Of a stretch of 64,000 nucleotides of DNA, positions 341 through 63,345 are shown piece by piece; within the stretch, counting starts at the first letter, position 1; each line of letters begins with the position of its first letter. Source of the stretch: Phycisphaerae bacterium (lineage in GTDB: Bacteria; Planctomycetota; Phycisphaerae; SM23-33); the NCBI GenBank assembly GCA_009783465.1, contig WRDM01000002.1, forward strand, positions 42,097-106,096. The letters are read 5' to 3'. Both the position numbers and the translations under genes were made by a program. The notes under the pieces are model-generated. The model was not told the DNA's origin and did not search any database. It saw nothing but the letters and a program-made list of their open reading frames with translations.

Positions 341-2011
341 ATGACCACACACAACCTCCAACCCGCGCAGCCGCTCATCCGACGGTATCTGTTCGTCGCG
401 GCGGCCCTGTTGGCGGCGGTGTATCTGGCGTGCGTCAACGACCGCTGGTATCCCACGCCCGACAGCGCCTTGTACGCCGGGCTGGGGCGGTCGCTCGCTG
501 AAGGGCGAGGGTACGTTTTCAATGGCGGAGTGGACAACACGGCCACGCCGGGCCTGCCGGCCGTCATCGCGGCGGCGAGGCTCCTCACCGGCGGCGACGG
601 CTGGTGGGTGTGCAACCTGTTCATCACGGCCTCGGGGTTGGCGGCGTTATTATTCATCCGGGCCGTGTTGCGAAAACTGCTGCCCGCCGACGCGCCGCCA
701 TCGACGAACTCATCGCCGTCACCGCCCACATCACGGCTGCGTGACACGATCGCATCGCCCGCGCCGGCGAAGTTATCCGCCGACCTGGCCACGCTCATGT
801 TGGCCGGCTCGTTTTTGTTCTTCGAGCATTCACACTATATTTTGACGGACATTCCGCTGGTCGCGTTGGCGTGGGCTGCCTTCTATGCCGCGCTGCGGGC
901 GACGCACGGACACTGGGCCTGGCTGGCGCTGGCGGCAGGGCTGTGCGTCGCCGCCATGACGATCCGCGCGCCGATGGCGCCGTTCCTGGCCTTGCTGGCA
1001 ACGGGACTGGTGTTTGGACCGTTGCCATGCGGAACGGTCCGCGAGGGCAAGTTATCCTCGCCACACGCGGGCGAGACGCCCGCGCCACGGGCCGCGCGAC
1101 GGCGTTGGTTCGCCGCCGCCGTGCTGCTGGCGGCCACCGCGGTCCCCTTCGCGTTCTGGTACGTTCTCGGCCGGTCGATCGGACCGCTGCCGTACGTCGA
1201 ATCCGCCACACGGCTGACGGCGGGATTTTTCGCGCGGGCAGGCGAGGCCGCGTGGGCGCAGGCCGGCGTCATGTCCACATTCCTCATCGGCGTGCCCAGC
1301 ATGCCCTGGCTGGGCTTGATCCTCTGGCCGGTGGCGCTGTTGGGATTGGCCGTGCTGTGGCGGGGCTTTTGGCTGGGCCTGCTCGTGCTCGTGCCGTACA
1401 CGCTGTTCATCGCCGTCATCCGCGCTGCCGACAACCCCGATCGCTTCATGCTGCCGGTGGCGCCGCTGGTCTACCTCGGCCTGACGCAGGGCGTCTGGTC
1501 GCTCGCGACGGCGGCAGGCCACCTCGCGCGAGCACGGCGAAATCACGCGACCACCGCGTTGATCGTCCTGACGGCGGCCATCCTGCTCGCCAACGTCGTG
1601 CCGATGGCCAAGTTGGTGCATCGCATGGCCTGGCTGGCCCACACCGACCGCTACGACACCGAGGCCAAACGCGGCTTCGTGGGCGAACACAAAAAAGTCG
1701 CCGAACTCCTCGCCAACGAACTGCCCGAAGAAGGCCGATTCCTCGCCACCCGAGGCCCCGGACGAATCGTGTACTATTACAGCGGGCGACCCTTCATCAC
1801 CCCGCCGCCGCACAATGACGGCCTGCTCGGCCCCGACGATGCACAGGAACTCTGGAACCTCTGGCAGGCAAACCCCGACATCCGCATCGCCGTCCTGCCC
1901 TGGCATGGCCGACAAAAACACCACGCCTACACCGCCCGCATCGCCGAACTCTTCGCCAGCGAACGCGAACTCCACCGCGGCAACACGATGATCGTCTTCG
2001 AACGTCGCTAA
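341..2011 (+). CDS. GT39/ArnT-like membrane glycosyltransferase (PMT_2 family), carries short in-frame palindromic element
   Basis: 556 aa polytopic membrane protein; N-terminal DSALYAGLGRSLAEGRGYVF motif typical of ArnT/PMT family; peptide PHAGETPAPR at nt ~1062-1092 encoded by a copy of the in-frame palindromic element. Confidence 0.55.
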   Translation: MTTHNLQPAQPLIRRYLFVAAALLAAVYLACVNDRWYPTPDSALYAGLGRSLAEGRGYVFNGGVDNTATPGLPAVIAAARLLTGGDGWWVCNLFITASGLAALLFIRAVLRKLLPADAPPSTNSSPSPPTSRLRDTIASPAPAKLSADLATLMLAGSFLFFEHSHYILTDIPLVALAWAAFYAALRATHGHWAWLALAAGLCVAAMTIRAPMAPFLALLATGLVFGPLPCGTVREGKLSSPHAGETPAPRAARRRWFAAAVLLAATAVPFAFWYVLGRSIGPLPYVESATRLTAGFFARAGEAAWAQAGVMSTFLIGVPSMPWLGLILWPVALLGLAVLWRGFWLGLLVLVPYTLFIAVIRAADNPDRFMLPVAPLVYLGLTQGVWSLATAAGHLARARRNHATTALIVLTAAILLANVVPMAKLVHRMAWLAHTDRYDTEAKRGFVGEHKKVAELLANELPEEGRFLATRGPGRIVYYYSGRPFITPPPHNDGLLGPDDAQELWNLWQANPDIRIAVLPWHGRQKHHAYTARIAELFASERELHRGNTMIVFERR

Positions 2012-4197: not shown

Positions 4198-4358
4198 GAA
4201 ATGATTCCTTCGATCAGATCGCCCGCCCGCGCCACGAGAAATGAAAGCCCTTGTTTTTCCTCTGCCCCATTTGCGAATCCCGTTCGCCGTTCCTACACTG
4301 AGGCCGAGGGCGTCGGCGTGGGGTCGGCGTCGCGTGGGGCGTCTTCGCGGGGGCGGTC

Positions 4359-7300
4359 ATGCTGGGGTTGTCGCGTCGAGCGTTTCTTCAAGTCACCGCC
4401 GGCTCCGCGGGCGCCGTGGCCGCCTCCATGGGCCTGCGACAGGCGGGAAAACTCATCCCCTACGTCGTGCCCCCCGAGGAAATAAAACCAGGCCAGTGGG
4501 CGACCTTCGCGACCACCTGCCGCGAGTGCCCCGCCGGCTGCGGGCTGCACGCGCGGCACCGCGACGGCCGGGCCATCAAAGCCGAAGGCAACCCGCAAAG
4601 CCCCGTCAACCGCGGCGCGCTGTGCGCCCGCGGGCAATCCGCCGTGCAAGGCCTGTACGACCCCGACCGGCTGCGACACCCGCTGCGACGCGTCCACCGC
4701 GACGCGACGCTCGAACACGCCGCCTGGGCCGATGCCATTGCTGCCGTCATCGAAATCCTGAAAAAACCACAGAAAAACGTCCACATTGTCAGCGACTTGC
4801 AAACCGGCGCACTGGCGGAAGTGCAAACCGCCTTCGCCGCACTCCACGGCAGCGAGCCCGTGCTGTACTTCGAGCCGTGCAACTACGAACCGCTTCGCGA
4901 CGCCCACCGCATCGCCCTGGGCCTGGACGCAATCCCGCGATACCGCATCGAGCGAAGCCGCTACATTCTCAGCCTCGGCGCGGACTTCCTCGAAACGTGG
5001 ATCTCGCCCGTGGAGTTCGCTCGCGGCTTCGCAAACGCTCGCGAAATCCGCCCCGCCGAATACGGCCGCGATCCGTACGAGTCGCCGCCGCGCAGGCCCG
5101 GAAAATTGGTATACGTCGGGCCTCGACTGTCCATGACGGCCGCCAACGCGGATGAGTTTTTCCAATGCCAAAGCGGTGCCGAAGGCTGGATTGCCCTGGC
5201 GATTCTTCACGAACTGCTCGCCGCGGATTGGGTGCAAAACCAACGCGACGCGATCGCGGCAGCCGCGAAAATAGTGGGCGCCGAGCACGCGCTCAATCAC
5301 GCGGGGTTAGAAAAATCCACCGTCGCCCGCCTGGCCCACGAGTTCGCCGCCGCGCGCGGCGCGGTCGCGCTGGCGTGTCCGACCGCCGCCACGGGCGATG
5401 CGGCACGATGGGCTTCGCTGGCGGCCATCCTTCTCAACGTCGCCGTCGGCAGCGGCGGCAACGATGCGGAGAACAACGGCGTCATCGTCGATTTCTCGCA
5501 GCCGCACGCGCTGAGCGCCGCCGCCAAACTACGCGAAGTCGCCGATCGGTTGGCCTCGCTGGGGCCAAACGACGTCGTGATTCTGCACAACGCCAACGTG
5601 GCGTTCGCCCTGCCGGCAGCGGCGGCGGGATTACAAAACGCCGCCGCCGTGATTTATCTCGGCCCGCAGCTCGATGAAACCGCCGAACTCGCCGACGTCG
5701 TGCTGCCCACCGATTCGCCTCTGGAAGCCTGGGGCGACTACGAACCGTACGCGGGCATGCACAGCCTGATTCAGCCGACGACGGCCCGGCTGTACAATTC
5801 GCGAAACGCAGGCGACATCCTGCTGGCGCTCGCGCAGGCGACGAACCGCCCGCTCACTCCGCCGTACGCGTCAAGCCCGCCGGAAGATTTCCTGCACTGG
5901 CTGCGGCTGCGATGGCAACATTTTCACCCGCAACACGACTGGCAGGACGCCCTCCGCGCCGGCGGGGAGTTTGACGAGACGCCAGGTGGCGAGATGCCCG
6001 CTTCACGTGACGCGGGCGTCTCGCCCGCGTTGTGTGTTCCACTGTCCTGGCCTATGGAATACAGTAAATCTGTTCCACAGCACAGCGCGGGCAAGATGCC
6101 CGCGAGACACGAGGGCGAGACGCCCTCGTCACGTGAAGCAGACACCCGCGCCGCAGACGACCATTTCCATCTCTGGCTGTGGCCTTCGGTGTTCCTCTTC
6201 GACGGCCGGTCAGCCAACAGGCCGTGGTTGCAGGAGGCGCCCGATCCGACGACCCAGGCCACCTGGAGCAGTTGGGCGGACATGCATCCCGACCGTGCCG
6301 CCGCGCTGGGCCTGCGCGGCGGCGACGCCATTCGCATCCAACTGTACGACGCCACGGACAAATCCGCCGCCATCACCCTGCCCGTGCGAATCACCGCCGA
6401 CGTCGCCGACGACACCCTCGCCGTCGTCCTGGGCCAGGGGCACTGGGCGATGGGCAACACCGCCCGCAACCTCGGCGCCAACGCCTTCCGCCTCCGCCCG
6501 ATTCAACCGACGCGCGACAACTTCCCCGCCGTACGCGTCCGCCGTGCCGCCGGGGCCAATCCATTGTCCTATCATCCAACATCCGCCATGCAGGATCAGC
6601 ATCGCCGCGAACTGCTCCAGTGGACATCACTCGCGCAGGCGTCGGCCGACCCGCCCCCGCCGCGCGACGACGCGTTTCGCATGCCGCTGCCGGAAGGCTA
6701 CCGCACCGACGCCTACGCACCGCACGAACACCGCAACCACCGCTGGGCGATGGCGATCGACCTGCACCGATGCGTCGGCTGTGGCGCGTGCGCGGTCGCG
6801 TGCTACGCGGAGAACAACATCCCCGTCGTCGGGCCCGCCGAAGTGGATCGAGGCCGCGAAATGGCCTGGCTGAAAATCGTCCCCTACCGCTCGCCCCACG
6901 ACGCGGGCCGGCTGGGCTTCCTGCCGATGCTCTGCCAGCACTGCGACGCCGCCCCGTGCGAACCGGTCTGCCCCGTCTACGCGTCCATGCACACCGAGGA
7001 AGGCCTCAACGCCCAAGTCTACAACCGCTGCATCGGCACGCGGTACTGCAACAACAACTGTCCCTACAAGGCCCGGCGGTTCAACTGGTTCGACCGCGAC
7101 TGGCCGGAGTCGTCGCGATGGCAGCACAATCCCGAAGTCACCGTTCGCGAGCGCGGCGTGATGGAAAAATGCACCTTCTGCATTCAGCGAATCCGCCACG
7201 CCCAGCACCGCGCCCTCCGCGAAGACAGGCCGCTGCGAGACGGCGAAATCCAGCCCGCGTGCGTCGCCACCTGCCCGACCTCGGCCATGATCTTCGGCGA

Positions 7301-7427
7301 CCTGCTCCGCGGCGACAGCCTCGTGACACGACTCTTCCGCAACGACCCGCGACGCTACCAGGTGCTGGGGGAATTGAACACCAAACCGGCCGTGGTGTAC
7401 TTGCGGCGTGTGACATGGAACGCCTGA
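4359..7427 (+). CDS. actB: Alternative complex III subunit ActB (Tat-signal, molybdopterin-oxidoreductase-like domain fused to 4Fe-4S ferredoxin domain), with in-frame palindromic element
   Basis: MLGLSRRAFLQ twin-arginine signal; N-terminal MopB-like domain; C-terminal CVGCGACAVAC / CQHCDAAPCEPVCP Fe-S motifs; followed by actC; 44-codon element insert at ~5975-6140. Confidence 0.8.
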   Translation: MLGLSRRAFLQVTAGSAGAVAASMGLRQAGKLIPYVVPPEEIKPGQWATFATTCRECPAGCGLHARHRDGRAIKAEGNPQSPVNRGALCARGQSAVQGLYDPDRLRHPLRRVHRDATLEHAAWADAIAAVIEILKKPQKNVHIVSDLQTGALAEVQTAFAALHGSEPVLYFEPCNYEPLRDAHRIALGLDAIPRYRIERSRYILSLGADFLETWISPVEFARGFANAREIRPAEYGRDPYESPPRRPGKLVYVGPRLSMTAANADEFFQCQSGAEGWIALAILHELLAADWVQNQRDAIAAAAKIVGAEHALNHAGLEKSTVARLAHEFAAARGAVALACPTAATGDAARWASLAAILLNVAVGSGGNDAENNGVIVDFSQPHALSAAAKLREVADRLASLGPNDVVILHNANVAFALPAAAAGLQNAAAVIYLGPQLDETAELADVVLPTDSPLEAWGDYEPYAGMHSLIQPTTARLYNSRNAGDILLALAQATNRPLTPPYASSPPEDFLHWLRLRWQHFHPQHDWQDALRAGGEFDETPGGEMPASRDAGVSPALCVPLSWPMEYSKSVPQHSAGKMPARHEGETPSSREADTRAADDHFHLWLWPSVFLFDGRSANRPWLQEAPDPTTQATWSSWADMHPDRAAALGLRGGDAIRIQLYDATDKSAAITLPVRITADVADDTLAVVLGQGHWAMGNTARNLGANAFRLRPIQPTRDNFPAVRVRRAAGANPLSYHPTSAMQDQHRRELLQWTSLAQASADPPPPRDDAFRMPLPEGYRTDAYAPHEHRNHRWAMAIDLHRCVGCGACAVACYAENNIPVVGPAEVDRGREMAWLKIVPYRSPHDAGRLGFLPMLCQHCDAAPCEPVCPVYASMHTEEGLNAQVYNRCIGTRYCNNNCPYKARRFNWFDRDWPESSRWQHNPEVTVRERGVMEKCTFCIQRIRHAQHRALREDRPLRDGEIQPACVATCPTSAMIFGDLLRGDSLVTRLFRNDPRRYQVLGELNTKPAVVYLRRVTWNA
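5975..6140 (+). repeat. in-frame palindromic element (IPE family) inside actB
   Basis: TCACGTGACGCGGGCGTCTCGCCCGCGTTGTG...CGCGGGCAAGATGCCCGCGAGACACGAGGGCGAGACGCCCTCGTCACGTGA; terminal inverted repeats; near-identical DNA in 8 other genes; encodes ...RDAGVSPALCVPLSW...AGKMPARHEGETPSSRE. Confidence 0.85.
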
Positions 7428-9382
7428 CCTACGCACAAATCGACGATGCCGTTCTCGGCGCGATGGCGCCGGCGAGGCGGCGGTATGTCGTCATCATGCT
7501 CGTGCTGGGCGGGCTTGTGGCGATGTTTTTCACCCTATGGATTCACCAGGCCCGCACGGGCATGGGCGTGGCCGGGATCAACTCGCCGGTCGGCTGGGGC
7601 GTGTACATCGCGTCGTTTGTGTTCTGGGTGGGCATCGCGCACAGCGGGACGTTGATTTCCGCCATCCTGCACCTGGTCCGCGCGAAATGGCGCACCGCGG
7701 TGGCCAGGTCCGCCGAGGCCATGACGATTTTCGCCGTCATGACCGCGGGGCTGTTCCCGCTGATCCACCTCGGTCGGGTGGGCGTGTTTTATTACATTCT
7801 GCCGTACCCGACCACGCGGCAGATTTACCCGAATTTCCTCAGCCCGCTGGTGTGGGACGTCGTGGCCATCTCGACCTACTTCACGGTCAGCCTGGTCTTC
7901 TGGTATGTCGGCCTGCTGCCGGATCTGGCCAGCGCCCGCGACCGCTGGCACCGCCTGGTCGGCCCCCATCACCCGCGCACGCGATTCTATCACGCCCTGG
8001 CCATGGGATGGTCCGGCAGCGGCAACCAGTGGCGGCATCACGGGCGGGCATACCTGTTCTTCGCCGCCCTGGCCACGCCATTGGTCATCAGCGTGCATTC
8101 GGTCGTCTCGTGGGATTTCGCGATGTCCATCCTGCCGGGATGGCACACGACGATGTTTCCGCCGTACTTCGTCGCCGGGGCCATTCACTCGGGACTGGCC
8201 ATGGTTATCGTGCTCCTGCTGCCGATGCGGAAACTTCTGCGGCTGGAAAGCCTCGTCACCGACTGGCACTTCGACTGCCTGGCCAAGACCCTCCTCGTCA
8301 CCACGTGCATCATGGGCTATTCGTATATCATCGAGCCGTTCACCGCCTGGTACAGCGGCAACGTGATCGAGCGGCAATTCATCCACTGGCGGGCGTTCGG
8401 CGACACCTGGCTGACGCCGGGCTACTGGTCGATGTGGCTGCTGAACGTCATCGTTCCGCTGGCGTTTTTCGTGCCCCGCCTCCGCCGCAGTCCCACCGCG
8501 CTGATGCTCATTTCCCTTGGCATCACGATCGGCATGTGGCTGGAGCGCGGCGTGATCGTGCCGGCAAGCCTCGCCCACGACTTCATGCCCCACGCCTGGG
8601 GCCAATACGTCCCCAGGCCAATCGAATGGGGAATTCTCCTGGGCTCGTTCGGCTGGTTTTTCTTCTGGTTTTTCGGCTTCGCGAAATTTTTACCGACCAT
8701 CGCGGCGAACGAGGTGAAAGAAGAAACGCATCGCGATGGCTTGCCGGCACCACGTGACGCGGGCGTCTCGCCCGCGTTGTGCGCTCCATGTGACTGGCTA
8801 CTGGAAAACGCCAAGTCGTCTTCAACATCGGACGCGGGCAAGATGCCCGCGAGACACGAGGACGAGACCCCCGCGTCACGTTACGTCTGGGGAACATTCG
8901 ACACGCCCGCCGCGTTGATCGCCGCCGTGCGGCAACTGCGTGACGACGGCGTGACGGGCATGGAGACGTACACGCCGTTTCGGTTACAGGAGGTGGAAAA
9001 ACTGCTCGGACGCGGCCCCAGCCCGGTGCGGCTGTGGACGTTGGCGGGCGCGTTGGCGGGCGCGGCGGGCGGATTCGCGTTGGCGATCGGCCTGGCGGCG
9101 ATTAACGGGCTTGTCGTCGGCGGGCGGATTTCCTACGCCGTCATCGTGCCGTACTGCGTGATCGCTTTCGAAGGCACGATCCTGCTGGGCGTGCTGGCGA
9201 ACGTGACGGGATTGTTTTTTCATGGCCGCCTCGGCAGCGCGAGGCCGTTGCCGCGCGGATACGTCCGGCGGATTTCGGAAGACCGTTTCGGCCTGCTCAT
9301 CCCGTGTGATCGCGAGCAGGTCGGCGCGATGCGGGAGCGGCTGAGCACCCTGTGCGCGGAGGCGATCCATGTCGTCGAATGA
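7415..9382 (+). CDS. actC: Alternative complex III ActC (NrfD-like polytopic subunit) fused in-frame to ActD via a palindromic element linker
   Basis: Starts MERLTYAQIDDAVLGAMAPARRRYVV (ATG overlapping actB stop); ~10 TM NrfD/PsrC-like body; after element (8749-8883) reading frame continues into YVWGTFDTPAALIAAVRQLRDDGV... (ActD/DUF3341-like) with C-terminal TM; no stop or restart between. Confidence 0.7.
   Translation: MERLTYAQIDDAVLGAMAPARRRYVVIMLVLGGLVAMFFTLWIHQARTGMGVAGINSPVGWGVYIASFVFWVGIAHSGTLISAILHLVRAKWRTAVARSAEAMTIFAVMTAGLFPLIHLGRVGVFYYILPYPTTRQIYPNFLSPLVWDVVAISTYFTVSLVFWYVGLLPDLASARDRWHRLVGPHHPRTRFYHALAMGWSGSGNQWRHHGRAYLFFAALATPLVISVHSVVSWDFAMSILPGWHTTMFPPYFVAGAIHSGLAMVIVLLLPMRKLLRLESLVTDWHFDCLAKTLLVTTCIMGYSYIIEPFTAWYSGNVIERQFIHWRAFGDTWLTPGYWSMWLLNVIVPLAFFVPRLRRSPTALMLISLGITIGMWLERGVIVPASLAHDFMPHAWGQYVPRPIEWGILLGSFGWFFFWFFGFAKFLPTIAANEVKEETHRDGLPAPRDAGVSPALCAPCDWLLENAKSSSTSDAGKMPARHEDETPASRYVWGTFDTPAALIAAVRQLRDDGVTGMETYTPFRLQEVEKLLGRGPSPVRLWTLAGALAGAAGGFALAIGLAAINGLVVGGRISYAVIVPYCVIAFEGTILLGVLANVTGLFFHGRLGSARPLPRGYVRRISEDRFGLLIPCDREQVGAMRERLSTLCAEAIHVVE
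8749..8883 (+). repeat. in-frame palindromic element (IPE family) at actC/actD junction
   Basis: CCACGTGACGCGGGCGTCTCGCCCGCGTTGTG...GACGCGGGCAAGATGCCCGCGAGACACGAGGACGAGACCCCCGCGTCACGTT; encodes PRDAGVSPALCAPCDWLLENAKSSSTSDAGKMPARHEDETPASR. Confidence 0.85.
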
Positions 9383-10508
9383 GCCTCATCGCGCGCAGAC
9401 GATCGCGTTGGCCCTGCTGGCGACGGTTGGCGTGGCGGCGTGGGTTGTCATGTATTGGCTTGGCGACCGCGCGAGGTTGTGGCAGTCGTTGTTGGTGGCG
9501 TTTGTGTATTTCTCGCCGCTGGCGGGCGGGCTGGTCGTCTGGTCGGCGGTCGTGAATCTTTCCAACGGGCGATGGACGGGGACGATGGAAAAGGCCGCCC
9601 TGTGGGGCCTGGGCGGCTGGGCGGTGGCGATCGCGCTGTTCGTGCTGCTGGCGGCGCTGTTCGTGCCGTCGTGGGCTTCGCGATGCGAAAACCCAACCTG
9701 GGCCTGCTGGCAGAGCGATCGGCGGGCCGACGCGGGGAAGGATTTCTGGCTGTCGTCCGAGTTCCTCTTCGCGAGAAACGCGGCGGCGCTACTGGCGTTC
9801 TGGGCCGTGGCCGCGTGGTATGTCCGCCGGCGAATGCGAGGCCTGCCCGCCCGAGGCCTCGCCACCGGCGTGGTCCTGCTGTACGTGCTGAGCATGACGC
9901 TGATCGGCTACGATCTGGTGATGAGCCTGGACCCGGTCTGGTTCAGCTCGCTGCTGGCGCCATACGTGTTCATCTCGGGCATGTACACCGCGACAGCCGC
10001 CTGGGCGATCGTCGCCGCCGACAGCGGCCTGCTCGAGCCGACCGACCGCCGGCACGACCTCGGCAAGCTGATCGTCACGTTCAGCCTGCTCACCATGTAC
10101 ATGATGTACGGTCAACTATTGTGCATCTGGTACGGCAACCTGCCGCCAGAATTGCGGTTCGTCGTGCCGCGGCTGCGACATCCGCCGATGCAGTACGTCA
10201 GCCTGCTCCTGCTGGGCACGGTCTACCTCGGCCCGCTGGTGCTCATGCTGCCGCGATGGGTCAAACGCCGCCCCGCGCCGCTGCGGCTGATGGCCGTGTG
10301 GGTGCTCGTGTTCATGTACGTCGAGCGATGGTGGCTGATCGTGCCGACGTTCCATCAAGGCCACGACGTGATCAGCCTGCCCATCGACCTGCACGCCGGC
10401 GACGCCGCTGTCGCACTCGCCGCCGTCGCGGGGACGGCCCTGGGAATCCGCCACGTACGACGCGCCGGGCCGGACCATGACGTCGCGGAGAAAGGCGGCG
10501 CGACATGA
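9369..10508 (+). CDS. actF: Alternative complex III ActF-like polytopic membrane subunit
   Basis: 379 aa, ~10 predicted TM helices, position after ActC/D and before pentaheme ActA; ATG overlaps upstream stop. Confidence 0.6.
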   Translation: MSSNEPHRAQTIALALLATVGVAAWVVMYWLGDRARLWQSLLVAFVYFSPLAGGLVVWSAVVNLSNGRWTGTMEKAALWGLGGWAVAIALFVLLAALFVPSWASRCENPTWACWQSDRRADAGKDFWLSSEFLFARNAAALLAFWAVAAWYVRRRMRGLPARGLATGVVLLYVLSMTLIGYDLVMSLDPVWFSSLLAPYVFISGMYTATAAWAIVAADSGLLEPTDRRHDLGKLIVTFSLLTMYMMYGQLLCIWYGNLPPELRFVVPRLRHPPMQYVSLLLLGTVYLGPLVLMLPRWVKRRPAPLRLMAVWVLVFMYVERWWLIVPTFHQGHDVISLPIDLHAGDAAVALAAVAGTALGIRHVRRAGPDHDVAEKGGAT

Positions 10509-11017
10509 CGAGTCATCGCCCCGCCGCCGTGCTCGCGCTGGTGCTCTTCCTGACGCTGCTGGCCGCGGCGGCGGTGTATTTCCTGCCCTGGCCCGCCGCC
10601 ATCGGACCGGCCCAACCCGTCGCGTTCAGCCATCGCGTCCACGCGGGCGTCAAACAGATCAGTTGCATCTTCTGCCACCCCGGCGTGATCGACGGCCCGC
10701 ACGCCACCGTGCCGCCCGTGGCCAAGTGCATGCTCTGCCACCAGAAAATCATTCCGAAACACCCGGAAATCGTCAAAATCCGCCAGGCCTACGAACGCGA
10801 CACGCCCATCGCGTGGGTCAAAGCAAACGACGTCCCCGAGTTCGTCTACTTCACACACGAGCGGCACATTCGCGAGGGCATCGACTGCGGCCGATGCCAC
10901 GGCAACGTCACCGCCATGGATCGCCTCGCCGCCGCGACCGAACTGAACATGGGTTTCTGCATCCCCTGCCACCGGGACAACAAGGCGAGTGTGGATTGCT
11001 ATGTGTGCCATAGGTAG
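10505..11017 (+). CDS. actA: Alternative complex III ActA, membrane-anchored pentaheme cytochrome c
   Basis: N-terminal TM helix; five CxxCH motifs (CIFCH, CMLCH, CGRCH, CIPCH, CYVCH); start overlaps actF stop. Confidence 0.7.
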   Translation: MTSHRPAAVLALVLFLTLLAAAAVYFLPWPAAIGPAQPVAFSHRVHAGVKQISCIFCHPGVIDGPHATVPPVAKCMLCHQKIIPKHPEIVKIRQAYERDTPIAWVKANDVPEFVYFTHERHIREGIDCGRCHGNVTAMDRLAAATELNMGFCIPCHRDNKASVDCYVCHR

Positions 11018-11023
11018 GGAAGA

Positions 11024-11172: not shown

Positions 11173-11192
11173 AAAACCGTGCCCTGTAAACA

Positions 11193-14630: not shown

Positions 14631-15038
14631 ATGGCCAAAACCTTCGAAGAGTATCGCGTGCTTTCTCAACCGGCGGCGTGGGCGTTGCTGTTTCTGCTGG
14701 CCGGTGGCATTCTCGCGTGGGGCCTGTTCGTGAAATCCGTCATTCCCAACACACCGCGCGTCCACAACTACGGCGCCCTGCCCGACGCACCGGGACAATC
14801 CATCTACTCCACAAACCCCACGCCGCGCGACACCACCGCACCGCCGCAATATCAAACGCTCCCCGAAGCCAAACGTGACGCGGGCGTCTCGCCCGCGTTG
14901 TGCGTTCCATTGGCCGAGGCACCGGAAAACGATCTCTCGACTTCGCCATCCGGCACGGGCAAGATGCCCGCGGGACACGAGGGCGGGACGCCCTCGTCAC
15001 GTGAGACGCCCACATCACACGCAGAGGCGTCGCCATGA
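14631..15038 (+). CDS. small membrane protein whose C-terminal third is encoded by an in-frame palindromic element
   Basis: N-terminal TM (AWALLFLLAGGILAWGLFV); C-terminal ...AKRDAGVSPALCVPLAEAPENDLSTSPSGTGKMPAGHEGGTPSSRETPTSHAEASP*; stop overlaps next start (ATGA). Confidence 0.35.
   Translation: MAKTFEEYRVLSQPAAWALLFLLAGGILAWGLFVKSVIPNTPRVHNYGALPDAPGQSIYSTNPTPRDTTAPPQYQTLPEAKRDAGVSPALCVPLAEAPENDLSTSPSGTGKMPAGHEGGTPSSRETPTSHAEASP
14874..15004 (+). repeat. in-frame palindromic element (IPE family) forming the C-terminus of a small membrane protein
   Basis: AAACGTGACGCGGGCGTCTCGCCCGCGTTGTG...CACGGGCAAGATGCCCGCGGGACACGAGGGCGGGACGCCCTCGTCACGTGA. Confidence 0.85.
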
Positions 15039-21909: not shown

Positions 21910-23454
21910 CTACGTAGCCGCCGCTCCAAAACGTACGATCGGTCCAACCAGGCGCTCCATCGCCATGCCTCGCGAGCCTTTGATCAGGATCGTGTCGCCC
22001 GCTCGCAGCAGCGCGGGCAAGGCCTCGATGGCGGACTCGACGGAATCGAACTCCGCCGTCCGCGCCGTCGCGCCCGCCGACGCGGCGCCTCGCGCGATAT
22101 ATCGTCCCAACAGGCCGATTCCAATGAGAAAATCCACCCGCCCAGACGCGATCTCCCTGCCCGTCCGTTCGTGCAGCGAAATCGTCGACTCGCCAAGCTC
22201 TCGCATGTCGCCGGCGATCATCACGCGACGCGCGCCCGGCTGGTCGCCCAGCACGTCCGCGGCCGCGGCCATGCTGGCGGGGTTGGCGTTGTACGCGTCG
22301 TTAATCAGCCGCACGCTGCCGGCGGGCACGGCCTCCAGCCGCATCTCCACGCCACCGAAATCCGCCAACGCCGCCGCCGCGTCCTCCGCGCTCACGCCCA
22401 GACACGCCGCGGCCGCCATCGCCGCCGTCGCGTTGCTCGCACTGTGACGTCCCGGCTGCGGCAACACCACGCGCACGTCCCGCCCGCCAACGCGAACGGA
22501 AAACCGCACGCAGTCCGCGCCACCCTCGAAATCCACCAGCCGCCAATGGGCATCCGCCGACTGGCCAAACCATGTCACCGCCGCTCCACCCGTCGCCGCA
22601 ACCGCTTCGCGACGCAACGACTCGTTGTCCGCCCACACCACCGCCTGGCCCGCTCCGCGCAGCCCTGCGTAGCTCAACGAGCGAAGCAGGGACGCCTTCT
22701 CCTTCGCCACCAATTCCAGGCTGCCAAGTTTTTCCAGGTGCGTCTCGCCCACCGACGTAATCACGGCCACGTCGGGCCGGCAGATCTCGCCCAATTGCGT
22801 GATCTCGCCCGGCGCGTTCGTACCGACCTCGCACACGACGTACTGATCGCACTCGCCAACGCCCAACAGCGTCAGCGGCACGCCGATGTTGTTATTAAAA
22901 CTCTTCGGACTGCACGTTCCGTGTAAACGTGACGCGGGCGTCCCGCCCGCGACACGACTCAGAATGTGATGCAACATCCGCTTGGTGGTCGTCTTTCCGT
23001 TGGACCCCGTGACGGCGATCACGCGGGCGGGCATCGCGTCGCGGTGCCACCGTCCCAGCCTGCCCAACGCCGCCAGCGTGTCCGACACGCCAATCAACCG
23101 ATCGCCAAACCGCCGCGCCAAATCAGCCGGCAGCGGCACGCGAACATCCACCAGCGCCCCGCCCGCGCCGGCGGCGAACGCCTGCGGAAGAAAATCGTGC
23201 GCGTCGAATGTCTCGCCCTTGATCGCGATAAACAACGGCCCGTCCGGCCCAATCTTCCGACTGTCCATTTCGACGGCCTCGACACTCACCGCCGCCAGCG
23301 AACGTACGGCAGCGCTGGCGACATTCACATCCGCGCCGGCGCAGTCCGCGCCAGGCCACCAGAACGATTGGCCGTCCACGATTTTTCGAATGTCTTCCAG
23401 CGACGTCCGCTTCATAACAACACACCTGGCAATACATTCTGCTATCACATCCAA
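21910..23454 (-). CDS. murF: UDP-N-acetylmuramoyl-tripeptide--D-alanyl-D-alanine ligase, carrying a partial in-frame palindromic element
   Basis: Mur ligase domains (GSNGKTTTK P-loop, NNNIGVPLTLL); peptide SRVAGGTPASRLHG encoded by element fragment at 22927-22956. Confidence 0.8.
   Translation of the reverse strand: MDVIAECIARCVVMKRTSLEDIRKIVDGQSFWWPGADCAGADVNVASAAVRSLAAVSVEAVEMDSRKIGPDGPLFIAIKGETFDAHDFLPQAFAAGAGGALVDVRVPLPADLARRFGDRLIGVSDTLAALGRLGRWHRDAMPARVIAVTGSNGKTTTKRMLHHILSRVAGGTPASRLHGTCSPKSFNNNIGVPLTLLGVGECDQYVVCEVGTNAPGEITQLGEICRPDVAVITSVGETHLEKLGSLELVAKEKASLLRSLSYAGLRGAGQAVVWADNESLRREAVAATGGAAVTWFGQSADAHWRLVDFEGGADCVRFSVRVGGRDVRVVLPQPGRHSASNATAAMAAAACLGVSAEDAAAALADFGGVEMRLEAVPAGSVRLINDAYNANPASMAAAADVLGDQPGARRVMIAGDMRELGESTISLHERTGREIASGRVDFLIGIGLLGRYIARGAASAGATARTAEFDSVESAIEALPALLRAGDTILIKGSRGMAMERLVGPIVRFGAAAT
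22927..22956 (-). repeat. in-frame palindromic element fragment (single hairpin unit) inside murF
   Basis: acgtgacgcgggcgtcccgcccgcgacacg. Confidence 0.7.
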
Positions 23455-23759: not shown

Positions 23760-25304
23760 TCATCGTTTCACCAACATCTCGCGCACCACTTCGGCATCAT
23801 CAAAATGATGTTTGGTTTCCTCGACAATCTGGTACGTTTCGTGCCCTTTGCCGGCTAACAAAATCACGTCGCCTTCGCGGGCGTGCTGAATCACCCGCTC
23901 GATCGCCTTGCGGCGGTCGGGTTCGACGTGCGTTTTGGCCAGGCCTGCCGGTGTGAAGCCGGCGAGGATTTCGTCGATGATCGCGCGGGGGTCTTCCGTT
24001 CGCGGGTTGTCGCTGGTGACGACGACGGCGTCAGCAAGTTCTTCTGCCACGCGGGCCATCCGAGGCCGTTTGAGTCGGTCGCGATCGCCGCCACAGCCGA
24101 ACATCACGATCAGCCGCCCCCGCGTCACGGGCCTGACCGCCGACAGCACGTTCGCCATCGCGTCGTCCGTATGAGCGTAATCCACGTACACCGTGAACGG
24201 CGCGTCCACCGGCACGCGGTCAAGCCGCCCCGGCACGCGAACGCCCTTCGTCAACGTCGAGGCGATCACGTCCCACGACACGCCCAACCCGCGACAAATA
24301 CCCGCCGCCGCGAGACCGTTCCGCACGTTGTGCTTGCCGATCAGCGGGCTGGCAATCATGATCTCACGTGACGCGGGCGTCTCGCCTGCGTTGTGCGTGC
24401 CATGGGATTGGCCATTAGAAGACGTCAAACCGTCTTCGCCCGACGCGGGCAAGATACCCGCGTCACGCATCACAAACTCCGTGCCGCGGTCGCTGATGTC
24501 GCGAATCACAGCGCCGAGCGTTCTCGGCCCGTCCAGGCCGTAACTCACCACACGGCCTCGCGTCACCGCCGCCATCGCCTCGCCCGACGGATCGTCAAAA
24601 TTAATCACCGCCGTCGCGGAGGCGGGCAACTCCGCAAAGAGAATCCGCTTGGCCGCGAGATAATTCGCCATCGTCTTGTGATAGTCCAAATGCTCGCCGG
24701 TCAAATTCGTGAACGCCGCCGCCGCGTACTCCACGCCGGCCACCCTGCCCTGATCCAGCGCGTGCGACGACACCTCCATCACCAGGTGCGTTCGACCGGC
24801 CTGTACCATCTCGGCCATCATCTCCGCCAAGTCCACCGCGCCGGGCGTGGTGTTGTTGGCCTCGACGCTGGTTTTTCCGGTTTCGTAGGCAATCGTGCCC
24901 AGCAGCGCCGGCCGATGGCCCGCCGCCTCCAGGATCGCCCGCACCAGCAGCGTGATGGTGCTTTTTCCCTTCGTGCCCGTCACGCCGATGTTGATCAACT
25001 TCCGCGCCGGCCAGCCGTGAAACGCCTGCGCCATCGGCCCGAGCGCCCGCGCGGAACTCGACACCACAGCCCACGGCACGGACGCGGGCACGGCAGCGGC
25101 ATCCTCGCACACCACCGACGTCGCCCCGCCCGCCAACGCCGCCGCGATAAAATCATGCCCATCCACCACAGGCCCGCGCACGGCCACGAAACACGCCCCC
25201 GCGGCGCAGCGTCGCGAGTCGCTCACCAGCGAGGCCACAGGCCCGTCGCCGCGGCGAACGACCACGTCCACCCCCGCCGATGCCAACAATTCCGACAGAC
25301 GCAT
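23760..25304 (-). CDS. murE: UDP-N-acetylmuramoyl-L-alanyl-D-glutamate--2,6-diaminopimelate ligase, carrying in-frame palindromic element
   Basis: Mur ligase domains (GVTGTKGKSTIT P-loop, DNPRTEDP); internal ...SSNGQSHGTHNAGETPASREIMIA... encoded by element at 24364-24469. Confidence 0.85.
   Translation of the reverse strand: MRLSELLASAGVDVVVRRGDGPVASLVSDSRRCAAGACFVAVRGPVVDGHDFIAAALAGGATSVVCEDAAAVPASVPWAVVSSSARALGPMAQAFHGWPARKLINIGVTGTKGKSTITLLVRAILEAAGHRPALLGTIAYETGKTSVEANNTTPGAVDLAEMMAEMVQAGRTHLVMEVSSHALDQGRVAGVEYAAAAFTNLTGEHLDYHKTMANYLAAKRILFAELPASATAVINFDDPSGEAMAAVTRGRVVSYGLDGPRTLGAVIRDISDRGTEFVMRDAGILPASGEDGLTSSNGQSHGTHNAGETPASREIMIASPLIGKHNVRNGLAAAGICRGLGVSWDVIASTLTKGVRVPGRLDRVPVDAPFTVYVDYAHTDDAMANVLSAVRPVTRGRLIVMFGCGGDRDRLKRPRMARVAEELADAVVVTSDNPRTEDPRAIIDEILAGFTPAGLAKTHVEPDRRKAIERVIQHAREGDVILLAGKGHETYQIVEETKHHFDDAEVVREMLVKR
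24364..24469 (+). repeat. in-frame palindromic element (IPE family) inside murE (opposite orientation to host gene)
   Basis: TCACGTGACGCGGGCGTCTCGCCTGCGTTGTG...GACGCGGGCAAGATACCCGCGTCACG. Confidence 0.85.
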
Positions 25305-34868: not shown

Positions 34869-36113
34869 TCAGTCCTGGCCCATCATCTCGAGATAGAGTT
34901 TTTCGTGGGCGGCGACCATGGTATCGACGGCGAAGGTTTCGGCGCGGCGGCGGGCGACGGTGGCCATGTGACGGCGGAGTGGCGTGTCGTGGGCGAGGCG
35001 TATCATGGCCTCGGCGAGGGCGGCAGGGTTTTCGGGCGGGATGAGCAGGCCGGTTTGGCCGGGGAGCATGACGTCGCGGAGTCCCTCGACGTCGGTGGCG
35101 ATCACGGGCAGCGAGGCGGCCATCGCTTCGACCGCCGACAGGCCAAACCCTTCCCAGCGGCTTGGCATGACCAGGAAATCGCCCGCAGAGTACAGGCCCG
35201 CGATCTCGTCAACAAACCCCGGAAACACCACCCGTACCGCCCCGTCGGCAGGCTGATTCCGCACAAATTCCTCGACCATCCCCTGCCAAGGCCCCTGCCC
35301 GGCGATGGCAACGACAAGCCGGGCCCGTGACGCGGGCGTCTCGCCCGCGTTGTGTGATCCATAGGCCTGGCCGTTAGAGGACGAACAAGCGTCTTCGCCT
35401 CCAGACGCGGACGAGACATCCGCGAGACACGCGGGCAAGATGCCCGCGTCACGTGGCCCCAACCGCTGGGCCGCCAGCGGCAACGCCTGGAGCAGAATGT
35501 CCAGCCCCTTCTGATCACATAACCGGCCGGCCCAGACGGCCAACCGATCCGCCTCGCCGACGCCAAGCCGCTCCCGCCACGCCAAGCCTCGCGACGCGTT
35601 CCGTGCATACGCGGCCAGGTCGATGCCGTTTTCGATCGTCACGCACCGCCGGGGCGAAATCCCCGACCGCCGAATGTGGTCCGCCCGCACGCTCTCCGAC
35701 ACGCACACGACAGGCCCGCGACGCTGGAACAGCCGACCGTACAGACTCCGCCACGGCAGAAACCGCCGCTCGGCTACGTGAACGGTGTGGGCCACGCGCG
35801 GCACGCCCGCCAGCCTCGCCGCCAGCCGCCCGGCCAGGTCGGCGTGGAACAAATGCGTGTGCACCATATCAAACCGCCCCGCCGCCAGCCATCGCGACAG
35901 CTCGCGAACCTTCAGCACGTCCCACTTGCCCGCCACGCCGAGCACGAACACCTCCACGCCGGCATCGCGAAGCCGCTCAGCGACGGCCCCGCCACGCAAC
36001 GCCGCCACACTCACACCAAACCGCGACCGGTCCAGCCGCGTCGCCAACTCATACACCACCCGCTCGGCGCCGGCGGGGGCAAGCTCGGTGATCATTTCAC
36101 ACACGCGAATCAT
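34869..36113 (-). CDS. GT4-family glycosyltransferase carrying in-frame palindromic element
   Basis: GT-B fold group-1 glycosyltransferase motifs (EGFGLSAVEAMAASLPVIATDVEG); internal ...ASGGEDACSSSNGQAYGSHNAGETPASRARLVV... encoded by element 35325-35456. Confidence 0.7.
   Translation of the reverse strand: MIRVCEMITELAPAGAERVVYELATRLDRSRFGVSVAALRGGAVAERLRDAGVEVFVLGVAGKWDVLKVRELSRWLAAGRFDMVHTHLFHADLAGRLAARLAGVPRVAHTVHVAERRFLPWRSLYGRLFQRRGPVVCVSESVRADHIRRSGISPRRCVTIENGIDLAAYARNASRGLAWRERLGVGEADRLAVWAGRLCDQKGLDILLQALPLAAQRLGPRDAGILPACLADVSSASGGEDACSSSNGQAYGSHNAGETPASRARLVVAIAGQGPWQGMVEEFVRNQPADGAVRVVFPGFVDEIAGLYSAGDFLVMPSRWEGFGLSAVEAMAASLPVIATDVEGLRDVMLPGQTGLLIPPENPAALAEAMIRLAHDTPLRRHMATVARRRAETFAVDTMVAAHEKLYLEMMGQD
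35325..35456 (+). repeat. in-frame palindromic element (IPE family) inside GT4 glycosyltransferase gene
   Basis: CCGTGACGCGGGCGTCTCGCCCGCGTTGTG...GACGCGGACGAGACATCCGCGAGACACGCGGGCAAGATGCCCGCGTCACGTG. Confidence 0.85.
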
Positions 36114-45168: not shown

Positions 45169-46846
45169 CGATAGTGCGTTCATGGCCGCCGCGTTGGCGT
45201 GTGCGGCCTTGGGTCGCGGGCACGTCGAACCGAACCCGATGGTCGGCGCGGTGTTGGTACGCGACGGGCGGGAGATCTCCCGCGGGTTTCATCGGCGATT
45301 CGGCGGGCATCACGCGGAGGTGGAGGCCGTGCTCGCCGCCCGCGCCGCCGGGACCGACCTGCGCGGCGCGACGCTCTATGTCACGCTCGAGCCGTGCTGC
45401 CACACCAACAAAAAAACACCCCCCTGCGCGCCGATGCTCGCGGGGCTGGGCCTGCGACGCGTCGTCGTCGCGATGGAGGATCCCGACCCCAACGTGCGAG
45501 GCCGCGGATTGGCCATGCTTCGCGACGCGGGCGTGGCGATAACAACCGGCGTGTGCGAAGCGGCCGCGAAAACTCTGTTGCGTGCGTACGTCAAACTGCG
45601 AACGCAGGGCAGGCCGTGGGTGATCTGTAAATGGGCGCAGACCGCCGACGGCTATCTCGCGCTGCCGCCGTCGGCGGGGCGATGGATCAGCGGCGAGGCG
45701 TCGCGGCGGGACGTCCACCGCCTGCGGGGCCTGTGCGACGCGATCCTCGTCGGCGTGGGCACGGTGCTCGCCGACGACCCCCTGCTCAACAACCGCTCCG
45801 GCGAAGGCAAACAGCCAACCCGCATCGTGCTGGACACCCATCTCCGCACGCCGCCAACCAGCCGACTCGTCCAGACCGCCCGCGAGTTCCCGCTGATGAT
45901 CGTCACACAAGCACACAACGCGGGCGAGACGCCCGCGCCACGTAGCACGGGCGTCCCGCCCGTGAGTCGCATGGGCGTCTCGCCCATGCAACCGCAGCCG
46001 ATCAGCGAAACGTTCCTGATGCAAGCCGACGCGCTCCGCAACGCCGGCGTGGAACTCCTCGAACTGTCCACCGACGACAGCTTCGGTGGCAAAATCCACC
46101 TCCCCGCCCTGCTGGACGAACTGGGCCGGCGACGCATGACGTACCTGCTCGTCGAAGGCGGACACCGCGTGCTGCAACGTTTCCTCCACGCCGGCCTGGC
46201 GGACGAAATGCGAACGTACACCTCGCCACGAACCCTCCGCGACGAGTTCCTGTCCGAAGCCCTCGCCACGCTGCCGCACATGGACACACGGGAATTTCCG
46301 TCGCCAGGCATGGACTTGGAAGTCAGCCAGCCGCTCGGCGAGGATACGCTGCGCGGCTACGCGCGGGCAGCCGCGACCGTCCGTTCAGGCGAGGACAAGC
46401 GAAAACATGGCGAAGATGACGGCGGCGTTACTCGTCTGACAGGCAACGAATTAGGCGATGGCCTGGTGTTCGACCGGCTTTTGGAGGAAGCACGGAAGTA
46501 CGCCAGAACGAATTTTTTCGACAAAAAAGTGGCCATCGAGTCCGAAGGCGTTGAGGTTCTGGTTGCGATGAGTGGGATCAAACACACGCTGACAGCCGCT
46601 AAAACGAATGAGGATATCTATGCGGTTATCGCATTGCCTCAACTTCTACAGCGTGCCGTCAAGACAGGAGAATCGCCCGACAAACGCAACCGGAATAACG
46701 TCGTTGCCGTTGAGCGATATCGGGCTCCGCTCCGCATTGGCGACAATACGTACATGGCCGAGATGATTGTGAGAGTGGAGAAAAAAAGCACGAGAATGCT
46801 GGGCCATCTTCGCGTGTTCCACCACCAAGAACTGAAGGGCCTGTAG
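45140..46846 (+). CDS. ribD: riboflavin biosynthesis deaminase/reductase RibD with in-frame palindromic element and a ~150-aa low-GC C-terminal extension
   Basis: CMP/dCMP deaminase zinc motif (HAEVEA...PCCH...C) and RibD_C reductase domain; QAHNAGETPAPRSTGVPPVSRMGVSPMQPQP insert (45914-45988); residues after ~420 (nt ~46400-46846) have markedly lower GC and no RibD homology. Confidence 0.75.
   Translation: MTDVQATGDSDSAFMAAALACAALGRGHVEPNPMVGAVLVRDGREISRGFHRRFGGHHAEVEAVLAARAAGTDLRGATLYVTLEPCCHTNKKTPPCAPMLAGLGLRRVVVAMEDPDPNVRGRGLAMLRDAGVAITTGVCEAAAKTLLRAYVKLRTQGRPWVICKWAQTADGYLALPPSAGRWISGEASRRDVHRLRGLCDAILVGVGTVLADDPLLNNRSGEGKQPTRIVLDTHLRTPPTSRLVQTAREFPLMIVTQAHNAGETPAPRSTGVPPVSRMGVSPMQPQPISETFLMQADALRNAGVELLELSTDDSFGGKIHLPALLDELGRRRMTYLLVEGGHRVLQRFLHAGLADEMRTYTSPRTLRDEFLSEALATLPHMDTREFPSPGMDLEVSQPLGEDTLRGYARAAATVRSGEDKRKHGEDDGGVTRLTGNELGDGLVFDRLLEEARKYARTNFFDKKVAIESEGVEVLVAMSGIKHTLTAAKTNEDIYAVIALPQLLQRAVKTGESPDKRNRNNVVAVERYRAPLRIGDNTYMAEMIVRVEKKSTRMLGHLRVFHHQELKGL
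45914..45988 (-). repeat. in-frame palindromic element (IPE family, three hairpin units) inside ribD
   Basis: cacaacgcgggcgagacgcccgcgccacgtagcacgggcgtcccgcccgtgagtcgcatgggcgtctcgcccatgc; left end is exact reverse complement of the IPE terminal repeat. Confidence 0.8.
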
Positions 46847-62256: not shown

Positions 62257-63345
62257 ATGCATGATGTCGTGATTGAACGCGTGCCTTTGTCGCGTCGGCG
62301 GGCAGCGATGAGGTTTCTCATCGGCGGTTCGTCGCGCGACACGTTTACGCGGATGCAGGCGGATTCGTTGTATCAGCGCACGCTGGGCGCCGACGCGGGC
62401 CTGGCGGAATTGTGGTGGGCGCGGCGAGGGCGGACGGAGCTGGCGGCGGCGATGATCTATCACAACGTCGGACGGACAGGCACGCTGTTGGCCAGTCCGG
62501 CGGCAGCGCCGGACGTCGACGCCCAACAACTCGCCCGCCTCGTCGGCGAACTGTCGCGGGCCGAAATCCGCCGCGGGTTGTCGATGATCCAGACACTCCT
62601 GCCGGCCGAGGCGAAACCCGAATTGGCCATGCTCGGCCAGGCGGGTTATCACCGCTTGGCCGAACTGGCGTACATGCAGCTGGCCGTGCCGCTGGCGTGT
62701 AACACGGGCATCTTGCCCATGAGTCGCATGGGCGTCCCGCCCATGCAAACGCCGCCAGCAGATCAGGCCTTCACATCACAGATAAATACAAACGAAGCGA
62801 TTATGCCATATGCCGAGCATGGGCGAGACGCCCATGCGGCTCACGGGCAAGATGCCCGTGCTACGTTTCACGTCGCAGCCGAGTTTCCCGCGCGGGAGCT
62901 GGAACAGATCATCCGCCGCAGTTACGAGGACTCGCGGGATTGTCCGGGACTGGCGGGCGTGCGCGATCTCGGCGACGTCGTCGCGGGGCATCGCGCCAGC
63001 GGGCTGTTCTCGCCCGAAAGCTGGTGGATCGTCCACGTCGAGGGCCAATCGGCAGGCTGCCTGCTGCTGAACGAATCCCTCACCGGGCAGGACGGCGAAA
63101 TCGTCTACCTCGGCGTGGCGCCGGAATTTCGCCGCCAGGGCATCGCACGGACCATGCTCGTCCAGGCGATTTCGCACGCACAGCGCGTCTCCTGGCGGCG
63201 GTTGACGCTGGCCGCCGACTCGTCAAACCTGCCTGCCGTCAGGCTTTACGAATCGTTCCAGTTCGCCGTCTCGCACCGTCGCGACGCCTGGATTTTCACG
63301 CGGCGCGACGTGGCTGAGGGTTTCCCCTCAAAAAACCGCTGTTAA
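62257..63345 (+). CDS. GNAT-family N-acetyltransferase with in-frame palindromic element in N-terminal half
   Basis: C-terminal GNAT core (VYLGVAPEFRRQGIARTML, acetyl-CoA Q/RxxGxA motif); insert CNTGILPMSRMGVPPMQTPPADQAFTSQINTNEAIMPYAEHGRDAHAAHGQDARATFHVA at 62705-62872. Confidence 0.55.
   Translation: MHDVVIERVPLSRRRAAMRFLIGGSSRDTFTRMQADSLYQRTLGADAGLAELWWARRGRTELAAAMIYHNVGRTGTLLASPAAAPDVDAQQLARLVGELSRAEIRRGLSMIQTLLPAEAKPELAMLGQAGYHRLAELAYMQLAVPLACNTGILPMSRMGVPPMQTPPADQAFTSQINTNEAIMPYAEHGRDAHAAHGQDARATFHVAAEFPARELEQIIRRSYEDSRDCPGLAGVRDLGDVVAGHRASGLFSPESWWIVHVEGQSAGCLLLNESLTGQDGEIVYLGVAPEFRRQGIARTMLVQAISHAQRVSWRRLTLAADSSNLPAVRLYESFQFAVSHRRDAWIFTRRDVAEGFPSKNRC
62705..62872 (+). repeat. in-frame palindromic element (IPE family, catgggcg/cacgggca hairpin-unit variant with AT-rich centre) inside GNAT gene
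   Basis: gggcatcttgcccatgagtcgcatgggcgtcccgcccatgc...(AT-rich 45 nt)...gagcatgggcgagacgcccatgcggctcacgggcaagatgcccgtgctacgtttcacg. Confidence 0.8.

Follow-up and report, generated by a model that had tools for sequence, protein, structure and literature searches.

A palindromic REPIN-like element in frame within the linker of a fused ActCD gene from a Phycisphaerae bacterium

We analysed a 64-kb stretch of a Phycisphaerae metagenome-assembled genome (MAG), called the window below, which carries an operon related to alternative complex III (ACIII) between positions 4359 and 13731. The genes are, in order, ActB (QrcB+QrcC-like, with a Tat signal), a fused ActCD, a 379-aa protein, a 170-aa QrcA-like multihaem cytochrome, a cbb3-type CcoN and a FixO/CcoP fusion. 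The frame of the fused gene is free of stops from ATG 7415 to TGA 9382, its start overlaps the ActB stop at 7427, and its 655-aa product is identical to the NCBI protein MCL2700194.1. Between the ActC part and the ActD part, the frame passes through a 132-nt palindromic element composed of repetitive extragenic palindromic (REP) hairpins, and copies of this element are found in other genes of the window. We think it very probable that ActCD belongs to a family in which the two subunits are natively fused, and that this mobile element became part of the linker between them and is translated through.

Both halves of the protein are recognizable. Pfam places PF03916 (NrfD) at residues about 54-386 and PF11821 (ActD) from Y490 onward, which is the Y of YVWGTF at nt 8882, with profile positions 2-169 of 170 covered. 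ActC chains in the PDB match residues 29-441, and ActD chains (6f0k_D, 6lod_D and 8k9e_D) match residues 491-648. The ActC part is NrfD-like with 10 predicted transmembrane (TM) helices and an RRR motif ahead of TM1. In the AlphaFold2 model the ten ActC helices are followed by a short helix (431-440) and then coil, and the ActD part has a strand at 489-495 and helices at 538-568 and 574-603. In the R. marinus ACIII structure (6F0K; PMC5928083), the N- and C-terminus of ActD both lie in the cytoplasm. Taken with the model, this would put the ActC C-terminus, the linker and the ActD N-terminus all on the cytoplasmic side, a topology that is compatible with a fusion.

A sequence-only reading of this DNA had described a continuous ActC-element-ActD frame with a 44-residue peptide encoded by the element, and both observations hold up: Pfam domains lie on either side, and the element is a real repeat with three further full copies. 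The same reading stated that no stop, ribosome-binding site or Met separates the domains. There is no stop and there is no convincing Shine-Dalgarno sequence, but the Met part was wrong, as there is an in-frame ATG at 8843-8845 (GKMPARH). The other in-frame start-like codons are TTG 8741 and TTG 8777.

To place the fusion, we searched 5.8 billion proteins and obtained 8000 matches; the homologue figures given here are for the best 120 of the 8000. Every one of the 120 is a single polypeptide with both PF03916 and PF11821 (51-69% identity at full coverage, about 608-737 aa and mostly about 625 aa). Geomonas, Geotalea and Pelotalea are among the named sources, along with a Verrucomicrobiae MAG. 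The alignment consists of a conserved ActC block and a conserved ActD block with an unconserved linker between them, and the frame relationship from ActC to ActD in the window is the same as in all of the homologues. A metagenome scan gave about 80 loci that align as a single stretch over both domains (residues 5-644 of 655). The closest of the 120 homologues, which we label P0001, is 74% identical outside the linker, is fused, and has an element-free linker of 28 aa that reads EVKEEEYHLGGSHSPTHGKPGFVLKDIRGAKSGVWGVF. In the window protein, EVKEETHRDG, which lies upstream of the element, aligns with the start of the family linker and not with an ActC C-terminus followed by a stop.

ActCD is thus a widespread family of natively fused proteins, whose ActC and ActD parts are connected through a cytoplasmic linker that is about 29 residues long and poorly conserved. 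The window protein likewise has NrfD and ActD in one polypeptide, with a linker that reaches 55 aa here through the element. Because all 120 homologues and the metagenome loci are already one polypeptide, the element did not fuse two genes; the fusion is older than the repeat, which sits in a linker that was already there. The sequence-only reading had offered two options, an insertion at the actC stop/actD start junction that produced the fusion or an element sitting within a native fusion linker, and it is the second that survives the comparison with relatives. Its further claim that ActD can be made only as a fusion is probably right, but this holds for the family in general and is not due to the element. 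We found no mention of an ActC-ActD fusion in the ACIII structure papers and the NrfD review that we consulted. The misreading is worth correcting, as the fusion is an old and widespread architecture and not the product of a mobile element.

The 132 nt of the element correspond to 44 codons (residues 446-489, nt 8750-8881). Its terminal inverted arms are 26 nt each (8752-8777 and 8856-8881) and 88% complementary, and the whole is predicted to fold as a single long hairpin, with -70 kcal/mol as RNA (z = -5.45) and -42 kcal/mol as DNA (z = -5.08). The REP units share one plan, in which a tag (GTGA or GTGG) precedes a hairpin with a stem of 8 bp and a loop of 3 nt. REP-c, which is partly decayed in the ActCD copy, is intact as CGAGGGCG-AGA-CGCCCTCG in sister copies (6110-6128 and 14978-14996). 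Stems across the window differ only by compensatory pairs (CGCGGGCG, CGAGGGCG, CACGGGCG, CATGGGCG and CGCGGGCA), which is the pattern of REP sub-families. From its sequence, the element is best described as a composite of three REP hairpins and a spacer, similar to a REPIN (a REP doublet forming a hairpin) or a bacterial interspersed mosaic element (BIME). The phase in which it is translated gives small, polar and proline-rich residues (..DAGVSPA..AGKMPA..ETPASR). We inspected the flanks of the four full copies and found no target-site duplications, and no known Rfam family overlaps the element. At 8780-8791 the ActCD copy encodes a CxxC motif (CAPC) that is not present in the sister copies (LCVPLSW, LCVPLAE and LCVPWDW); it is probably there by chance.

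The 26-mer at the left end of the element has 11 matches in the window with at most 3 mismatches, where 0 are expected. In total the window has 19 REP hairpins (8-bp stem, 3-nt loop, 0-1 mismatch) at 9 loci in 64 kb (Table 1). All 9 loci are inside predicted genes that have Pfam support or high GC content at third codon positions (GC3), and the approximately 15% of the window that is non-coding has none. All are translated as AG(V/E/G/I)(S/T/L)PA, and the hairpin is free of stops in all three phases. Where a comparison with a homologue or with Pfam was possible (ActB, GT4, MurE), the insert is either in a variable loop or between domains: residues 167-263 of the GT4 glycosyltransferase are unmatched by Pfam, and the middle domain of MurE is about 30 residues longer than the Pfam profile. 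Most copies, the four full ones among them, have the tag GTGA; at 1091 and 45944, solo copies have GTGG. We found no REPs in the next 10 kb beyond the window. RibD (45140-46846, deaminase + reductase), which has its in-frame REPs at residues about 260-283, also has an extra C-terminal LPD3 domain (PF18798, 448-551).

Table 1. Positions in the window of the fused gene, the parts of the element, and the other REP loci.
Feature	Position	Strand	Description
Solo REP	1064..1091	+	Inside hypothetical gene 341-2011
Full sister copy	6004..6135	+	In frame in a variable ActB loop (SRDAGVSPA...GETPSSR); aligned with the L105 ActB homologue
Fused actCD gene	7415..9382	+	Open frame; PF03916 + PF11821; same gene call in ENA contig; MCL2700194.1
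Native linker remnant E436-A445	8720..8749	+	EETHRDGLPA; aligns with P0001 linker start EEEYHLGGSH
Palindromic composite element, REPIN/BIME-like	8751..8882	+	Inverted arms, four aligned full copies, hairpin fold; in-frame residues 446-489
REP-a	8754..8776	+	GTGA tag + hairpin CGCGGGCG-TCT-CGCCCGCG; encodes DAGVSPA
Internal spacer	8777..8832	+	LCAPCDWLLENAKSSSTS...; 56 nt between REP-a and REP-b, conserved among copies
REP-b	8833..8851	+	Hairpin CGCGGGCA-AGA-TGCCCGCG; holds in-frame ATG 8843-8845
REP-c	8856..8880	-	Inverted, partly decayed (ACGAGGACGAGACCCCCGCGTCAC); pairs with REP-a; minus-strand tag GTGA
ActD domain	8882..9382	+	Beta-alpha-beta, two TM helices, C-terminal beta-alpha-beta; Pfam, AlphaFold2, PDB
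Full sister copy	14872..15003	+	C-terminal tail of a small predicted one-TM protein (14631-15038)
Solo REP	22926..22951	-	Inside MurF (21910-23454, minus strand)
Shorter copy	24365..24470	-	Inside MurE (23760-25304, minus strand)
Full sister copy	35324..35455	-	In a GT4 glycosyltransferase (34869-36113, minus strand), between its two Rossmann domains
Three-REP cluster	45917..45988	+	Stems CGCGGGCG, CACGGGCG, CATGGGCG; inside RibD
Palindromic four-REP cluster	62703..62860	+	CATGGGCG / CACGGGCA stems; inside GNAT acetyltransferase gene

We measured linkers from the invariant K435 to V491 in the first ActD strand. The median for the 120 homologues is 29 residues and the minimum is 27, with 100 of the 120 between 27 and 30. 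The linker in the window is 55 aa, made up of 11 native residues (E436-A445 and Y490) and 44 encoded by the element. The statement in the sequence-only reading that the element is the only link is thus mostly borne out, with the exception of those 11 residues; the element-encoded peptide is 80% of the physical ActC-ActD link and reaches right up to the first ActD strand. In the AlphaFold2 model, pLDDT (predicted local distance difference test) is below 50 at 444-485 and residues 441-488 are coil without secondary structure, with confident ActC and ActD folds on both sides. Subtracting the element leaves 11 aa, well under the 27-residue minimum of the family, so about 18 native residues on the ActD-proximal side have been displaced. 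That the 27-residue minimum has no exception among the best 120 homologues suggests a constraint on linker length, and the element-encoded peptide would now serve as the spacer between ActC and ActD.

A second protein among the homologues, P0002, has a linker of this kind. It has about 62% identity to both the window protein and P0001, so it lies outside that pair; a second figure for its identity is 58%. Its linker is 56 residues with about 14 native ones left and encodes GMGVSPE...GKMPMP, and the DNA (L108 6757-6885) is a REPIN with GTGG...CCAC ends and CATGGGCG / CATGGGCA stems. This REPIN is independent of the element in the window and belongs to the same superfamily. The ActCD linker is thus a place where such elements land or survive repeatedly. 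Long linkers are found at the protein level in further homologues (P0080 with 121 aa, P0104 with 85 aa, P0042 with 63 aa and P0022 with 56 aa), and the 52-aa linker of P0027 contains a tandem peptide repeat.

It is possible, although we lean against it, that the element is a neutral passenger, in which case a linker of 11 residues would suffice and the other 44 would be dispensable. The sequence of the linker is unconserved across the family, and Di Nocera et al. argued that REPs within genes decorate loops and linkers in a neutral way (PMC3733652). However, no linker among the 120 homologues is as short as the one that would remain, most fall in a narrow range of lengths, and the two REPIN-bearing linkers have both lost native residues and come to a total of 55-56 aa.

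We consider it very unlikely that ActD is also, or only, made separately from the ATG at 8843, with a 13-residue N-terminal extension (MPARHEDETPASR-YVWGTF...). This codon is in frame 39 nt upstream of the ActD domain, and ActD does work as a separate subunit in canonical ACIII. However, we could not recognize a Shine-Dalgarno sequence in the 20 nt upstream, and the ATG belongs to the REP-b consensus, where it occupies the loop and 3' stem within the -70 kcal/mol structure. The copy in ActB and those in other genes have this ATG too, at places that call for no start, and the family makes ActD only as a fusion.

There is next to no chance that the element created the fusion by inserting at a junction between separate genes. 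The ActD Pfam match does start at the first codon after the element, and solved ACIII structures have one chain for ActC and another for ActD, but the homologues are fused without any such element, P0001 has an ordinary linker, and the residues before the element align with the start of the family linker. It is also very unlikely that an error of sequencing or assembly caused the read-through, be it a misplaced repeat or, as the sequence-only reading had named for its refutation, a missed stop or a frameshift in the GC-rich hairpin. Interspersed repeats can mislead short-read assemblers, and both protein records are probably from the same sample. However, the identical 655-aa protein is found in an NCBI MAG (117.6-kb contig) and in an ENA assembly (104-kb contig), the length of the insert is precisely 44 codons with the frame as in all homologues, the private substitutions of the decayed REP-c mean that this is not a collapsed consensus, and eight other in-frame sites behave alike.

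For the insertion of a mobile element in a native linker, the mechanism we propose is as follows. A REP-associated tyrosine transposase (RAYT) would have mobilized the element in the form of a single-stranded DNA hairpin, as may be expected for a member of a REP family. With a length that is a multiple of three and a favourable phase, translation would continue through the element, and the reading phase may be under selection. The product would be a disordered 44-residue segment in the linker, and the loss of native linker codons may have been tolerated as the insert made them redundant.

A related genome from the same sample (80-88% identity at the nucleotide level) has a decayed copy of this locus, with L106/L107 3796-7720 corresponding to window 4358-12593. 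ActB has an in-frame deletion there (window 5020-6109) with the REP GTHNAGETPAPR at the junction. In addition, the middle of ActC (8244) is joined to the middle of COX1 (11701), which removes the linker, ActD and two downstream genes.

Several points weigh against the insertion as we have described it. With Pfam we found no RAYT (no Y1_Tnp) among about 45 predicted genes of the window, and there is none in the 10 kb upstream. The tag in the window is mostly GTGA, and the accepted REP tags are GTAG, GTRG and GTGG, with GTGA unlisted. We looked for an empty site in the protein database, with a 90% cluster look-up and in a metagenome scan, and these gave no relative above 69% identity and no close genome with an empty site; the one near relative is the genome with the decayed locus, in which the entire linker region is deleted. 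The events may have been an insertion followed by a deletion, or a replacement in one step. That the 655-aa protein is made and functional is a prediction at the sequence level, and with the decayed copy in mind, a loss of ActCD function in this lineage is not unthinkable.

We found relatives of the REP unit in many other genomes. A degenerate 23-nt core, GTGRCGCGGGCGTCYCGCCCGCG, has more than 103 loci in a species-representative genome collection. The hosts include Terriglobia and other Acidobacteriota, Tepidisphaeraceae, Phycisphaerales, Planctomycetaceae, Verrucomicrobiota (including Geminisphaera colitermitum), Chloroflexaceae, Armatimonadia, Sumerlaeia, Binataceae and others. The public loci L002-L104, which come from both MAGs and isolates, put the core in at least eight phyla, including Acidobacteriota, Planctomycetota, Verrucomicrobiota, Chloroflexota, Armatimonadota, Sumerlaeota, Binatota and Eisenbacteria, and it is also in Trinickia and a Clostridia MAG. 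REP families are normally lineage-specific, and a spread over eight phyla is unusually broad for one. REPs and REPINs are reportedly also covered by Nunvar et al. 2010 and Bertels & Rainey 2011. Elsewhere the core is often in inverted doublets of the form GTGGCGCGGGCGTCTCGCCCGCG-spacer-CGCGGGCGAGACGCCCGCGCCAC, and the public loci (more than 100) carry a GTGG tag. The composite is shared in part only by a Planctomycetaceae MAG (L014, L028 and L069), where about 50 nt at the right end align with 90-96% identity and 147 nt with 71%; elsewhere there is only the 23-nt core.

We used a rough coding test, a long stop-free frame together with a GC3 excess, to compare where these loci lie. By this test, which is crude and chose the shadow frame at 8754, 22 of 120 public hits are intragenic (about 18%), as against 6 of 7 in the window (Fisher p about 4e-4); 18 of the 22 are in the same phase.

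A tblastn search with a RAYT query found one RAYT-like gene (L057 141-716), in a Phycisphaerales MAG, with 45% identity over 181 aa and the HUH motif LPDHLHVIW. It is flanked by a different REP family (GTAGGGCAGGC...GCCTGCC and GTAGGGCAGGCTATTGCCTGCC), so this MAG appears to have at least two REP families. We rejected the weak hits of the same query in L002 and L021 as GC-rich noise. The open reading frames (ORFs) between REP pairs in L033 were rejected as well, since they are long non-RAYT ORFs.

The window has other repeats. A second family of about 150 nt is strictly intergenic (4063-4197, 11031-11173, 12578-12720, 27753-27896, 28293-28435 and 55976-56133), has no Rfam match, and is palindromic, with arms of tandem heptamers (GCCAGTA GCCAATA GCCAGTA ... 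TACTGGC TATTGGC TACTGGC). Most copies are just 5' of gene starts (COX1, FixO/CcoP, PBP and others). A third repeat, likewise intergenic and palindromic and about 135 nt long (30436-30575 and 49805-49935, and also in the related genome at L107 5841-5981) has the same architecture with heptamers GCGACAA GCGACAA GTGACAA ... TTGTCGC TTGTCAC TTGTCGC. Finally, the ORF at 15870-16652 ends in a long acidic low-complexity tail (EEEEEEEEEDIDEGPEEEEEYEEEDEDDDD), and just upstream of it is a tRNA gene (15630-15719, minus strand).

More speculatively, the REP family in this genome could be a coding-adapted selfish element, present only in genes and in one phase, with the ActCD copy as a functionally required spacer, the same linker independently colonized by a REPIN elsewhere, and the core spread across at least eight phyla. 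We regard this combined picture as doubtful for now. If it is true, the conservation of a 23-nt core over that range would point to a shared and possibly horizontally spreading mobilizing enzyme or host factor. If the pattern holds genome-wide, this would be a useful system for the co-evolution of selfish hairpin DNA and protein-coding constraints. Whatever the answer, the window is a clear case, outside Rickettsia and Opitutus, of REP-type palindromes in frame in essential genes (a respiratory complex, Mur ligases and RibD). It is also a warning for annotation, because repeat-derived peptides in linkers and loops should not be taken as domains.

Compared with known systems, the operon departs from textbook ACIII. 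In canonical ACIII (R. marinus 6F0K, R. castenholzii 6LOD and F. johnsoniae 6BTM), ActC and ActD are separate chains, whereas in the window and in thousands of database homologues they are fused. The ActD of the window has two TM helices as in canonical ACIII, and its ActC and ActD residues match the solved chains. The gene content differs, as the window has ActB, ActCD, the unassigned 379-aa protein, for which we found no family match, and the QrcA-like cytochrome beside a cbb3-type oxidase, and we recognized no pentahaem ActA upstream of ActB.

The element has some features of a classical MITE (a miniature, IS-derived transposable element with inverted repeats), being small and non-autonomous with terminal inverted repeats and multiple copies. 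However, it has no target-site duplication, and its arms are autonomous hairpins carrying a REP tag. Its behaviour is closer to that of the Rickettsia palindromic elements (RPEs; RPE-1 and others), which are found in frame in unrelated protein genes (Ogata et al. 2000, summarised in PMC10969869). Like RPEs of about 100-150 bp, it is in frame in unrelated genes, some of them housekeeping (ActB, ActCD, MurE, GT4 and others), and it adds a conserved peptide where the protein tolerates it, at the surface or in linkers, and leaves the protein intact. RPEs are AT-rich and belong to an alphaproteobacterial endosymbiont, while the element here is GC-rich, built of REPs and hosted by a free-living planctomycete lineage, and the two would be unrelated in sequence. 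We therefore call it RPE-like in behaviour and do not class it as an RPE, a distinction drawn from descriptions of the RPEs.

The best match is with the REPs of Opitutus terrae, a verrucomicrobium. The GTAG-tagged REP superfamily has GTGG-tagged variants in this species (Di Nocera et al. 2013, PMC3733652), and intragenic in-frame REPs are most numerous there, where singles, dimers and groups encode GTGVSPV, VARASRP and TGGTPVP in stretches of usually 20-30 aa and up to 43-82 aa (PMC3733652). As in GTAG-19/-20 of O. terrae, the hairpin is about 20 nt with an 8-bp GC-rich stem, a 5' GTxG-like tag and compensatory sub-families, and the units occur dispersed and as inverted doublets with a spacer, encode in-frame peptides such as G(T/A)GVSPV and ..GTPVP, and are in a host from the Planctomycetes-Verrucomicrobia-Chlamydiae (PVC) superphylum. 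The window thus has the short stem-loop palindromes, the many dispersed copies and the inverted doublets folding into a larger structure that define REPs and REPINs. REPs are predominantly extragenic and those in the window are not, but intragenic exceptions are documented. Unlike in O. terrae, the stem is CGCGGGCG, as opposed to the CACGGGCG-type inferred for that species, the tag is mostly GTGA, and the element consists of three REPs with a conserved 56-nt spacer, with every locus intragenic and in one phase. In-frame insertion of a REP or REPIN in a permissive linker is already described for related bacteria; what is modestly new is that native linker residues were displaced, that a REPIN entered the same linker independently in another lineage, and that the distribution in this genome is apparently exclusively intragenic and in a single phase.

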